In this document: in pieces, positions 58,706 to 61,644 of the stretch | How positions within the stretch are numbered: position 1 is the stretch's first letter | How the letters are laid out: every line of letters begins with the position of its first letter | IMG/VR virus record: IMGVR_UViG_2537561979_000003 | Length of the DNA: 64,000 bases | Origin: a virus | Taxonomy: Duplodnaviria > Heunggongvirae > Uroviricota > Caudoviricetes | Direction: 5' to 3' (one strand) | Position numbers and translations under genes: made by a program | Notes under the pieces: generated by a model | Database searches by the model: none | What the model was told of the DNA's origin: nothing | Seen by the model: only the letters and a program-made list of their open reading frames with translations

Positions 58706-59170
58706 ACTTGCCGGGTACGTCTCCGGCGAGGGCTTCCACCTCCGTATGCTTTTCGGCGCACCGCGCCCTGGCTGCAATTCGGTAACAGGGGATGCATAAC
58801 CCTGGCTTCCAGCGTGATTAGCGCTTTCAGCATGACGGGATATACCCGTAAATTCGTGGAACTGTACCCAAAGTGCTGTTAAGCACCGCTGTTACGCTGA
58901 AAAGAAAACGCAACAGGAAAGGACGCTGACCAACAGATGGCCCCTTCTCGTTCATCTGGTTAATCACACCAGCGCCCTTACCTGTTGTGCCTCCCCGTTC
59001 CCTAATACACAGACGGGGACACTCTGCGGTCGATTTTTTGACGGGGGACGACTCATACCCCGTGGCGTCTGGCTTCTTAGGCCGCTACCATCATCAGATC
59101 ATCGTTTGCATTTACTTTAATGGTCAGTTTCTAAACCGCCGCAAAGTCGCTAACCATGACGAAAACCCTG

Positions 59171-59198
59171 AAAAAAAAACGCCCACCCGAAGATGGGC
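59171..59198 (-). terminator. rho-independent terminator in the leader between the C1-controlled promoter and the tRNA genes (or dmt terminator)
   Basis: Minus strand gcccatcttcgggtgggcg followed by T9. Confidence 0.55.
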
Positions 59199-59361
59199 AA
59201 ACTGGAAGCTCGTAACGCACTTCGGAGTTGCCACTTAGGCGCATGGTCAACCTGGCAACTCGGTGGTTTGTCTGGGAGGACTAGGCCCAGCCATGCTTAC
59301 CGCCGCGCCTGTCGCGGCTAACAGCTAAATCGCTCTATAAATCACGATTCATTGAGGCGAT

Positions 59362-59389
59362 ATTACACTAATAAATTTATTAGAGCAAT
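59362..59389 (-). promoter_or_regulatory. palindromic pair of overlapping C1 operators embedded in a sigma70-type promoter (ban-operon promoter candidate)
   Basis: Minus strand ATTGCTCTAATAAATTTATTAGTGTAATAT: perfect 17-bp consensus plus inverted partner; contains TTGCTC-17 bp-TAATAT. Confidence 0.65.
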
Positions 59390-61644
59390 ATACCTAAAAC
59401 GTCATGAGCTACACCTCGAGTGTCCCCCTTACAAGACACAGAACGTCTGGCAAAAAGAGGTTCCACTCTGAAGCCACTGTCATGATAAAGCTCTCTGATA
59501 TTTGGCGCGCCACTGTTAGTAATGAGAACCTTTGCACCTCGACGATGAGCATCCGTCAACAGAGACACCAGGCGTTTTTGCTCTTCAAACTTAAAGTCAT
59601 GACCGGAATAGTTCGTGAATCCCTCTGTATTTGGAAGCGGTTCATACGGCGGATCGCAAAAGATGACATCTCCTTCTCCGGCAGCTTCAATCACCGCTGC
59701 AAAATCACCGCATACAAACTCAGACCGCCCTTCCGCACCGAGGAAGGCTTCCATCTCCTGTAATGGGAAATACGGAGTTTTATACTTCCCATAACCGACA
59801 TTGAACTCACCGGCCTGGTTGTAACGCGTCAATCCGTTAAAACAATGTCGGTTCAGGAACAAAAACGCCGCTGCGCGATGTAAATCATCATAGACTTGTT
59901 TGTTAAACGCATTCCGTACTGCCAGGTATCCTTCCTGTGTGTTGTAGTCCTGGAAGAAACGATGTGCCAGAGTGATAAGTGAATGCGCCTCGCGTTGCAG
60001 AGTCTTGTAAAAGTTAATCAGGTCAGCATTCACATCATTTAGCAGATTTTCCTGGTATCCGGCATTCATGAAGACAGCTCCGCCACCAACGAAAGGTTCA
60101 ATCAGGCGCTTCCCTTCTGGCAAATAGCGAAAGATTTGTTCCAGAACACCAAATTTTCCACCAGCCCATTTGAATATGGACCGTTCGAATTCTGCCGCTG
60201 GTTTAACTTTTCGCTCTTTTGTTTCACTTCCTTCTTTCTGCCGACATACGGCCTTAGTAATCCGATCGCCAATCCAGCGCATTACTGGTATTGCCATACT
60301 ATTGCCGATCGCTTTGTAACGCGGTCCGTCAGCTGCAAGCATCGCGGCCTCTTCTTCGCTTAAATCTGGATAGTGATTGCGAAGATATGCCAGTTCATCT
60401 GAATTAACTTTTTTACGCTTTTCCGTCGGGATCAACGTATGCCCATCAGGAAAACCTTGCAGCCTTTCACATTCGACAGGGGTAAGACGGCGGACAGCTA
60501 CTTCTGCGTTTCTTACTTCATAGCAAACAGCTGTTGGATTTTTAGCCATTAGAGATGGTGAAGTATTCTTAGTTGCAGCATGTTGTGTACCGCTCATACG
60601 CTCAGGAAAAGCCAATGTAACAAGATGCTCATGGCTTTCTTGCTCACGTGCCCGCAATGTACCATGCCCTTCTGACCAAAAACCTGCTCCTGTGCTGCTA
60701 AAAACGGCAAGGTCAGTGGCATCTTTAAAATCTCTTGCCTTTACTGTCGATGCGGTTTCATCGTCAATATATTCCCCAAATGCTGCCATCCTGAAAGCGT
60801 TTACGGCTTTCGTCGATTTCATACCGGGTGGCATGTCAGCGTGTAGGCATGGATTTAGGCTTTCGCCACTGATTGCAGCGCCATTTGCAATAATGGCGGA
60901 AGCGATTTCCTTCTTTTTTCGGCTCGGCGCAATATTCCGGCGCACGCCTTCGAACTCAAAAAGTACCGTTGCGGGATCGAGGTCTGTTCGAGCACTTGCG
61001 ACAACAAACACGCGTCGGCGTCGTTGTGCCACTCCGAAGTATTGGGCATCAAGGATTCTCCAGGCCACCTTTCGCTGCGGTCCATAAATACAACCACACT
61101 GCGGCCACTTTGGAGCATGGCAACCGGTTTTGCCATCCCACCGCCAGAACGCGTTACTTTTTCCTGATTCAGGTCGATCACCTGGTTCAAATGGCGCATC
61201 TTCTCCAGCCAATCCGGCAAGGAAACATCCGAAGGCGTTATCTGCCGATGACAGGACTCCTGGGACATTTTCCCAGACGATAACTGTCGGTTTGAGGAAG
61301 GACTCAGACCGTTTGTCGTCAATTGCATTTGCAAGCTCCACATACTTCAAAGTTAGCGCGCCGCGTTCATCATCAAGCCCACCACGTAAGCCCGCGATAC
61401 TGAATGCCTGACAAGGCGTACCCCCGACGAGCACATCAGGGGATTCGATTTCCCCAGCCAGGACTTTTTTGGCAAGTTTTGTCATGTCGCCAAGGTTGGC
61501 GACATGGGGCCAGCGGTGCGCAAGAACGGCAGATGGAAAAGGCTCGATTTCAGCAAACCACGCCGGACGCATACCCAACGGTTCCCAGGCAATACTCGCG
61601 GCTTCAATTCCACTGCAAACAGATCCATAGCACAGCTCTTTCAC
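59380..61644 (-). CDS. dmt: Dmt fused DNA methyltransferase (C5-cytosine MTase domain plus Dam-like N6-adenine MTase domain), 754 aa
   Basis: N-terminal C5-MTase motifs (...[14 protein letters not shown]..., ...ENVPG...) and C-terminal N6-adenine DPPY motif (...FCDPPYEP...). Confidence 0.8.

Follow-up and report, generated by a model that had tools for sequence, protein, structure and literature searches.

What RNA is made at the front end of the ban operon of a P1-type phage, and how are the genes beyond it reached? The question arises in a stretch of 64,000 nucleotides (here, the window) from the IMG/VR virus record IMGVR_UViG_2537561979_000003, in which an operator for the C1 repressor and a sigma-70 promoter at the 3' end of dmt are followed, before the first tRNA gene, by an intrinsic terminator. 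The window belongs to a P1-type phage, the region being 99 to 99.9% identical to P1, JL22, RCS47, SJ46, and P7. In the P1 record (AF234172 / NC_005856), the end of dmt is followed by the operator Obanab, the promoter P1ban, a segment labeled "dicF-like region," and then tRNA-Asn, tRNA-Thr, plp, upl, tciA, tciB, tciC, tRNA-Ile, and ban, with plp and upl annotated on the opposite strand. The P7 record (AF503408) carries the same annotation of the operator and promoter region. The targets toward which the annotated P1ban points are trnA, trnT, tciABC, trnI, and ban. Upon release of C1, P1ban probably makes an RNA of ca. 180 nt that resembles the precursor of the small RNA DicF and ends at the terminator, with read-through supplying the tRNAs, tciABC, and ban.

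The ban leader resembles the DicF precursor rather than DicF

A sensitive blastn search aligned positions 59317-59223 of the leader (the segment transcribed from P1ban as far as the terminator) with lambdoid phages and prophages at ca. 77% identity, including mEp460, Stx2-converting phages, cdtI, and Ayreon. The lambdoid copies lie in the leftward early operon, past the repressor gene and two or three small open reading frames (ORFs), and the aligned stretch stops ca. 25 nt short of the true DicF gene, with dicB next after it. We refer to this element as the scaffold. A covariance model built in this analysis from scaffold sequences (model R1) found a single full-length copy in the window, at 59335-59205, with a score of 104.6 bits and an E value of 5e-31. 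The parts of the leader are as follows:

59351-59326, minus strand: predicted 5' stem-loop of the leader, present in the minimum-free-energy and centroid folds, specific to the P1 family and replacing the lambdoid upstream flank
59335-59205, minus strand: scaffold, structured and conserved, a homologue of the element that directly precedes DicF
59318-59313 with 59307-59302, minus strand: scaffold helix H1
59302-59299 with 59264-59261, minus strand: base of scaffold helix H2
59290-59286 with 59276-59272, minus strand: tip of scaffold helix H2
59260-59253 with 59233-59226, minus strand: scaffold helix H3
59296-59291 (GCAUGG) with 59246-59241 (CCAUGC), minus strand: loop-loop pairing of the scaffold
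59224-59200, minus strand: linker or 3' tail, CGAAGUGCGUUACGAGCUUCCAGUU, in the position held by DicF-type seed sequences in the lambdoid copies

Helices H1, H2, and H3 and the loop-loop pairing can all form in the P1 copy. Judged from these alignments, the homologue of P1's "dicF-like region" is the DicF precursor rather than DicF. The Rfam model of DicF (RF00039, gathering threshold of 48 bits) scores 76.7 bits on true DicF in the lambdoid and K-12 loci. An identification of the leader as DicF was rejected, with no match to this model at an E value of ≤1 over 56000-61000 or of ≤10 over 59165-59360. The 2004 annotation is explained by a precursor domain joined to P1's own tail and terminator, with no DicF. 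The scaffold itself, in its K-12 and P1 copies, matched no Rfam family at an E value of ≤10. A tRNA-like or transfer-messenger RNA (tmRNA)-like element was also considered and rejected, with no ARAGORN call on the scaffold and no Rfam match at the same threshold. On the two sides of the scaffold, the 5' stem-loop at 59351-59326 is nearly invariant in six P1/P7-type sequences, and the tail at 59224-59200, in which a weak 5-bp hairpin is possible, is invariant in the P1 family except for one substitution and one 4-nt insertion.

Farther along the operon, the region upstream of tciA aligns with the dicB leader (Rfam STnc100), which in the lambdoid genomes follows DicF directly. The scaffold and the dicB-leader homologue are adjacent in lambdoid prophages and 1.4 kb apart in P1, where the insert comprises a spacer, two tRNA genes, plp, and upl. 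By sequence comparison, the front of the ban operon looks like the lambdoid module of scaffold, small RNA, leader, and gene, split by ca. 1.4 kb. At 57830-57600 on the minus strand, just upstream of tciA, STnc100 itself gave a sub-threshold match (41.9 bits, against a gathering threshold of 47).

Conservation and covariation of the scaffold fold

In its lambdoid form, the scaffold spans ca. 115 nt and comprises an 8-bp closing stem (consensus GUUGUGGC with GCYRCAAC), a hairpin (H1), a two-part arm (H2), and H3 with its 19-nt loop, while a loop-loop pairing of 6 bp joins the internal loop of H2 (GUAUGG) to the loop of H3 (CCAUAC). Two pattern scans, with parts of two blocks kept fixed, collected the sequences from more than 120 viral contigs as well as chromosomal copies in Escherichia, Shigella, Citrobacter, Trabulsiella, Erwinia, and Izhakiella. 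In a MAFFT alignment of 29 sequences, 94% of the pair cells were paired. When 70 sequences were fitted to the covariance model, the proportion was 96.2%, versus 31 to 56% with the partners slid by 1 to 3 columns. Across these 70 sequences, 13 pairs had changes on both sides, and none of 500 shuffles reached the observed values. Between P1 and P7, compensatory changes were found at the base of H2 (U-A to C-G), at its tip, and in the loop-loop pairing (C-G to U-A). The predicted helices are well supported.

The putative tertiary loop-loop pairing is also supported, although thinly, by one covarying position together with near-invariance; this position is U-A in 65 sequences, U-G in 2, and C-G, the P1 type, in 3. 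As a control, the same pairing set one column out of register scored 16%. Three exclusion scans of viral contigs for variants of its 5' strand returned rare single changes only, mostly uncompensated: one variant forms a G-U pair, and GTCTGG, GTACGG, and GTATAG are uncompensated.

Operator, promoter, and terminator

The original prediction, made from the sequence alone, had described a perfect consensus C1 operator and an inverted partner overlapping a TTGCTC-17-TAATAT promoter at the dmt 3' end, reading toward the tRNAs, tciA, and ban, with a strong terminator at 59198-59171 before tRNA-Asn. All of these elements are present on the minus strand where they had been placed. The operator and promoter had already been characterized, which that prediction was unaware of; they are the long-known Op72ab and P1ban, and nothing in them is new. 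The control elements and the gene in which they begin are as follows:

59380-61644, minus strand: dmt ORF, with its TAA stop codon (59382-59380) inside the C1 operator
59389-59373, minus strand: C1 operator half-site Op72a (annotated Obana in AF234172), ATTGCTCTAATAAATTT, with no mismatch to the consensus
59362-59378, plus strand: C1 operator half-site Op72b (annotated Obanb), ATTACACTAATAAATTT, with 15 of 17 consensus matches
59388-59360, minus strand: sigma-70 promoter P1ban (annotated in AF234172), with the -35 hexamer TTGCTC at 59388-59383, a 17-bp spacer, and the -10 hexamer TAATAT at 59365-59360
59199-59171, minus strand: intrinsic terminator, with a hairpin at 59199-59180 closed by a UUCG loop and nine U at 59179-59171

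Op72a is the sole perfect match in the window to the 17-bp asymmetric C1 consensus. Op72b is inverted relative to it with an overlap of 6 bp, which gives the bivalent form of the operator atop a sigma-70 promoter. AF234172 describes Obanab as a divalent C1-controlled operator, formerly Op72ab, that controls ban expression, and C1 binding and repression at this site are taken here from that annotation and from work in which ban is C1-controlled (PMC4713147). A generic promoter scan missed P1ban because its -35 hexamer matches TTGACA at three of six positions. Transcription would start near 59353, ca. 7 nt past the -10 hexamer. Compared with Op72ab/P1ban of P1 and P7, the window (99% identical to P1) has the same sequence, the same position at the dmt 3' end, and the same orientation, and it shows no substantive difference from the P1 reference in this region, the length of the terminator U run (see below) apart.

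Sites resembling the C1 operator with at most three mismatches number 16 in the window, versus 0.26 expected by chance. Further ones were seen at 62895-62911 (minus strand) and at 14 other places, including a one-mismatch site that corresponds to Op68 (Odmt), upstream of uhr-hrdC-dmt.

The stem of the terminator, GCCCAUC-UUCG-GGUGGGC at 59198-59181, is extended by a U-G pair to 59199-59180, one position beyond the hairpin first called, so that it has 8 pairs. It folds at -12.8 kcal/mol (z = -4.8), a value that none of 200 shuffles matched. No other minus-strand site from dmt to ban has a long U run. The hairpin is kept in P7 and in D6, a more distant P1 relative in which everything upstream differs; despite this conservation, none of P1, P7, and D6 has a terminator annotated there. 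We consider the predicted terminator to be real.

Two observations concern this site in relatives of the window. The U run at 59179-59171 has 9 bases in the window, 6 in the P1 reference and in P7, and 7 to 8 in other relatives, a difference that is either a length polymorphism, which could tune termination, or a homopolymer sequencing error. In the D6 locus (3214-3345, minus strand), the P1 terminator hairpin and the 465-nt spacer beyond it are kept without the scaffold and without a C1 operator, and a 16-bp perfect inverted repeat (caagaaagaagccgac / gtcggcttctttcttg) that looks like an RNase III-type stem lies ahead of the terminator.

A proposed C1-controlled leader RNA with read-through into the ban operon

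In the prophage, C1 on the bivalent Op72ab, which lies across the last dmt codons and the stop, would block P1ban. Once C1 is lost, RNA polymerase would start near 59353 and make first the leader of ca. 180 nt (ca. 182 nt to the U run), composed of the P1-specific 5' hairpin, the scaffold of ca. 115 to 130 nt, the tail of ca. 25 nt, and the intrinsic terminator. Most transcripts would stop at 59179-59171 and yield a stable small RNA of ca. 180 nt, while a read-through fraction would continue into tRNA-Asn, tRNA-Thr, tciABC, tRNA-Ile, and ban. The same terminator would end the dmt transcripts, of which the leader would form the 3' untranslated region (3' UTR).

The original prediction had posed two alternatives, either a C1-controlled short leader with attenuated read-through into the ban operon or a terminator that ends dmt transcription and has to be read through for tRNA expression. 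Its identification of the elements stands, while the either/or framing falls, because the leader serves as a segment of both RNAs, P1ban transcript and dmt 3' UTR alike, and one terminator can end both. The long stem noted between promoter and terminator (agttgcca/tggcaact) is present as well, at 59261-59253 with 59233-59225, and turns out to be helix H3 of a conserved multi-helix RNA domain that had gone unrecognized.

The idea of a short leader with attenuated read-through receives indirect support from the homology of the leader to the DicF precursor, from the annotated control of ban from an operator 2.8 kb upstream, with no further promoter annotated or predicted on the way, and from the induction of ban, which is lower than that of other C1-controlled genes. 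Between the terminator and ban, no promoter is annotated and none of consensus quality was predicted on the minus strand. Upon c1.100 inactivation, ban was induced less than dmt, ssb, and kilA (PMC4713147). When P1vir infected a Δhfq host, dmt and hrdC were under-induced and trnA and ban were up (bioRxiv 10.64898/2025.12.28.696737), a pattern that fits a regulated step between dmt and trnA. Together, the ban induction and Δhfq data fit a partial block between dmt and ban, without proving one.

The K-12 system offers a view of what becomes of such an RNA. There, DicF occurs in a 53-nt form whose 5' end is generated by RNase E and in a ca. 190-nt form that depends on RNase III; the latter builds up in stationary phase and, in an RNase E temperature-sensitive strain, upon inactivation of the enzyme, and longer transcripts run into dicB and ydfD (PMC10448788). 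Summed on the K-12 sequence, 6 nt, 115 nt of scaffold, 16 nt of linker, and 53 nt of DicF give the reported length of ca. 190 nt, so that an RNA bearing the scaffold most likely does exist in vivo and is fairly stable. The leader belongs to a known kind of RNA, the DicF-type precursors, among which the P1 leader is uncharacterized and has a promoter and a tail of its own. With a canonical terminator ahead of ban, the tci genes, and the three tRNAs, the locus raises the question of the share of transcripts that reads through and of the job of the leader at induction.

Several points weigh against this proposal. The start, the stop, and the read-through of the transcript are all sequence-based predictions, and we likewise infer that the 180-nt RNA exists and is stable, along with any action in trans. 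The -35 hexamer of P1ban fits the consensus at three of six positions only. The closing stem of the scaffold is degenerate in P1, where 5 of 8 positions are pairable (2 Watson-Crick and 3 G-U pairs); an alternative 4-bp closure, GCUG/CAGU, is predicted in this copy. The P1 tail is not DicF, and the P1-family sequences are too alike to prove selection on it. Many other causes could account for the lower induction of ban. As for targets, none was convincing: complementarity to the ftsZ start region was at the level of shuffles, in a test that does not pick out real DicF either, and complementary matches of 11 to 12 nt inside the window occurred at chance frequency, with the two that were checked lying deep inside ORFs.

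Alternative readings of the locus

The same elements could be read as the plain end, or insulator, of the uhr-hrdC-dmt unit followed by a relic of lambdoid recombination, with some termination of P1ban transcripts but without a discrete leader RNA that has a function. Only ca. 180 nt separate the dmt stop codon from the terminator, D6 has the terminator but neither the scaffold nor a C1 operator, and the degenerate closing stem in P1 would suit a relic, as would the position of the dicB-leader homologue 1.4 kb away, upstream of tciA, which suggests a disrupted module. We nevertheless hold this reading to be unlikely, while giving it more weight than those that follow. Compensatory changes between the P1 and P7 alleles preserve H2 and the loop-loop pairing, which points to selection still acting on the fold; 469 P1-type plasmid records keep the leader; and the placement of the promoter puts the start of the scaffold within ca. 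20 to 30 nt of the 5' end.

It seems improbable that the scaffold acts in cis, either on RNA polymerase in the manner of put or as a riboswitch-like sensor, and in this way sets terminator passage and the expression of the tRNAs and ban. Such a role would be in keeping with every context seen, in which the scaffold precedes an intrinsic terminator and the operon continues beyond it with genes that have to be expressed, and with a complex fold that includes tertiary pairing and is better conserved than the RNA after it; cis-acting phage RNAs that suppress terminators provide a precedent (PMC9378689). However, the architecture is unlike that of put, complementarity between the 3' side of the scaffold or the linker and the 5' half of the terminator was no better than in shuffles, and the genomic context suggests no ligand or factor.

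Two specific candidates of this sort were tried and rejected. A relationship to HK022 put was set aside on the different architecture, with no HK022 record among the 60 of 63 blastn matches listed. For a riboswitch-like antiterminator, no enrichment over shuffles was obtained in 15 sequences from about a dozen module types (P values of 0.13 to 0.96). An alternative helix, CCGAAG/CUUCGG, shows up in truncated folds of the P1 leader.

That the leader is a functional DicF equivalent, whose tail or loops pair with ftsZ or other host mRNAs and block division in lytic growth alongside tci, is very improbable: although the P1 record labels the region "dicF-like" and annotates neighboring genes as possibly involved in cell-division inhibition, and although the tail takes DicF's position after the scaffold and has a hairpin and U-tail end like that of Hfq-binding small RNAs, no DicF match appears even at an E value of 10, the tail is mostly paired in the predicted folds, and its duplex energies with ftsZ are no better than those of shuffles, in a crude test that misses true DicF too.

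Comparison with known systems

The proposed C1-controlled leader shares with the ca. 190-nt DicF precursor of the K-12 Qin dicBF operon (the ydfC 3' UTR) a homologous scaffold followed by a short RNA with a GC hairpin and a U run, a place inside an operon with read-through-dependent distal genes, and a similar overall length. P1 also has a homologue of the dicB leader (STnc100), upstream of tciA. The two differ in that the 5' end in P1 would be set by initiation at a repressor-controlled promoter, whereas in K-12 it results from RNase III cleavage of a long mRNA. Moreover, P1 has a 3' module other than DicF and a degenerate closing stem, and ca. 1.4 kb separates its scaffold from the dicB-leader homologue.

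DapZ and MicL are examples of small RNAs that derive from a 3' UTR, are transcribed from a promoter of their own within the end of the preceding ORF, and end at the terminator of that ORF. With 3'-UTR-derived small RNAs as a class (PMC9438474), the leader has in common a promoter within the last dmt codons and a terminator that also serves the dmt mRNA; in contrast to them, P1ban is the target of a phage repressor and also drives a 3-kb downstream operon, and the activity of the RNA in trans is putative. The put RNAs of HK022 (PMC9378689) are, like the leader, structured phage RNAs located early in an operon and upstream of terminators that have to be passed. They have no sequence or architectural similarity to the leader, put being ca. 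70 nt long with two stem-loops.

The operator of P1 ref is Op51. To go by the title alone of a 1988 article by Windle, Laufer and Hays, ref is reportedly C1-controlled and under "attenuator-antiterminator control." If so, by this title the two loci would have in common a P1 promoter under C1 control and, beyond it, a terminator in the leader, ref being another locus of the phage.

Distribution of the scaffold and its exchangeable 3' modules

The lambdoid scaffold was found at 8,940 places in 4,313 of 5,426 complete E. coli genomes (79%), with up to 8 copies per genome. Two example copies are the following:

L170, 408-522: lambdoid scaffold of a K-12-type strain
L003, 2991-3105: lambdoid scaffold

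No RefSeq feature lies under the lambdoid scaffold in the 12 records listed. The P1 form of the leader occurs in the 469 P1-type plasmid records mentioned above, which come from Escherichia, Salmonella, Klebsiella, and Shigella. Downstream of the scaffold, at least 8 different 3' modules were distinguished, all ending in a GC hairpin and a U run, and this ending lies within ca. 10 to 80 nt 3' of the scaffold in all module types inspected, P1 included. Among 14 loci scanned with Rfam, two 3' modules were recognized, both of them DicF. Conservation is higher in the scaffold than in the RNA after it.

In the literature, we found no description of the scaffold, the accessible papers speaking of "a long untranslated region" or of the ydfC 3' UTR, and no published P1 transcript map for this region. 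The fold and the spread of the scaffold appear undescribed. By its genome counts, it ranks among the most widespread unannotated structured RNAs in E. coli, and it adjoins one of the first bacterial small RNAs ever studied. A bolder idea, which we put forward tentatively and rate as rather unlikely, is that the ca. 115-nt scaffold represents an undescribed class of folded RNA with an active role of its own. If true, this role could be, for instance, to steer how polymerase or RNases treat the terminator-bearing small RNA that follows, or to bind a host factor, and P1, with the scaffold directly behind a repressor-controlled promoter, would be a natural and easy test case.

In the distant copies of Erwinia tracheiphila (L158), Izhakiella (L160), and Trabulsiella (L156), and in L166, the scaffold is followed by a long terminator hairpin that encloses a Shine-Dalgarno sequence and an AUG. 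Translation of the downstream small ORF could open the terminator in these copies.

The spacer and the tRNA cassette

ARAGORN found three tRNA genes and no further tRNA or tmRNA. The two genes nearest the leader are the following:

58705-58630, minus strand: tRNA-Asn (ARAGORN)
58627-58552, minus strand: tRNA-Thr (ARAGORN)

The spacer between the terminator and tRNA-Asn (58706-59170, minus strand), 465 nt of noncoding sequence conserved in P1, P7, and D6, has an unusually stable fold (-179 kcal/mol, z = -4.1). It matched no Rfam family except for a weak match to permuted tmRNA (E = 0.05). Just past tRNA-Thr, at 58402-58475, 74 bases are 100% identical to the Salmonella/Klebsiella phage IME207, an unrelated phage of 47 kb. 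Finally, CACAACAGGTAAGGG occurs in three exact copies on the minus strand (58975-58989, 58536-58550, and 58321-58335), versus 0.01 expected; one copy lies directly 3' of tRNA-Thr and one in the spacer upstream of tRNA-Asn, and these repeats may be trailers or processing signals of the tRNA cassette.

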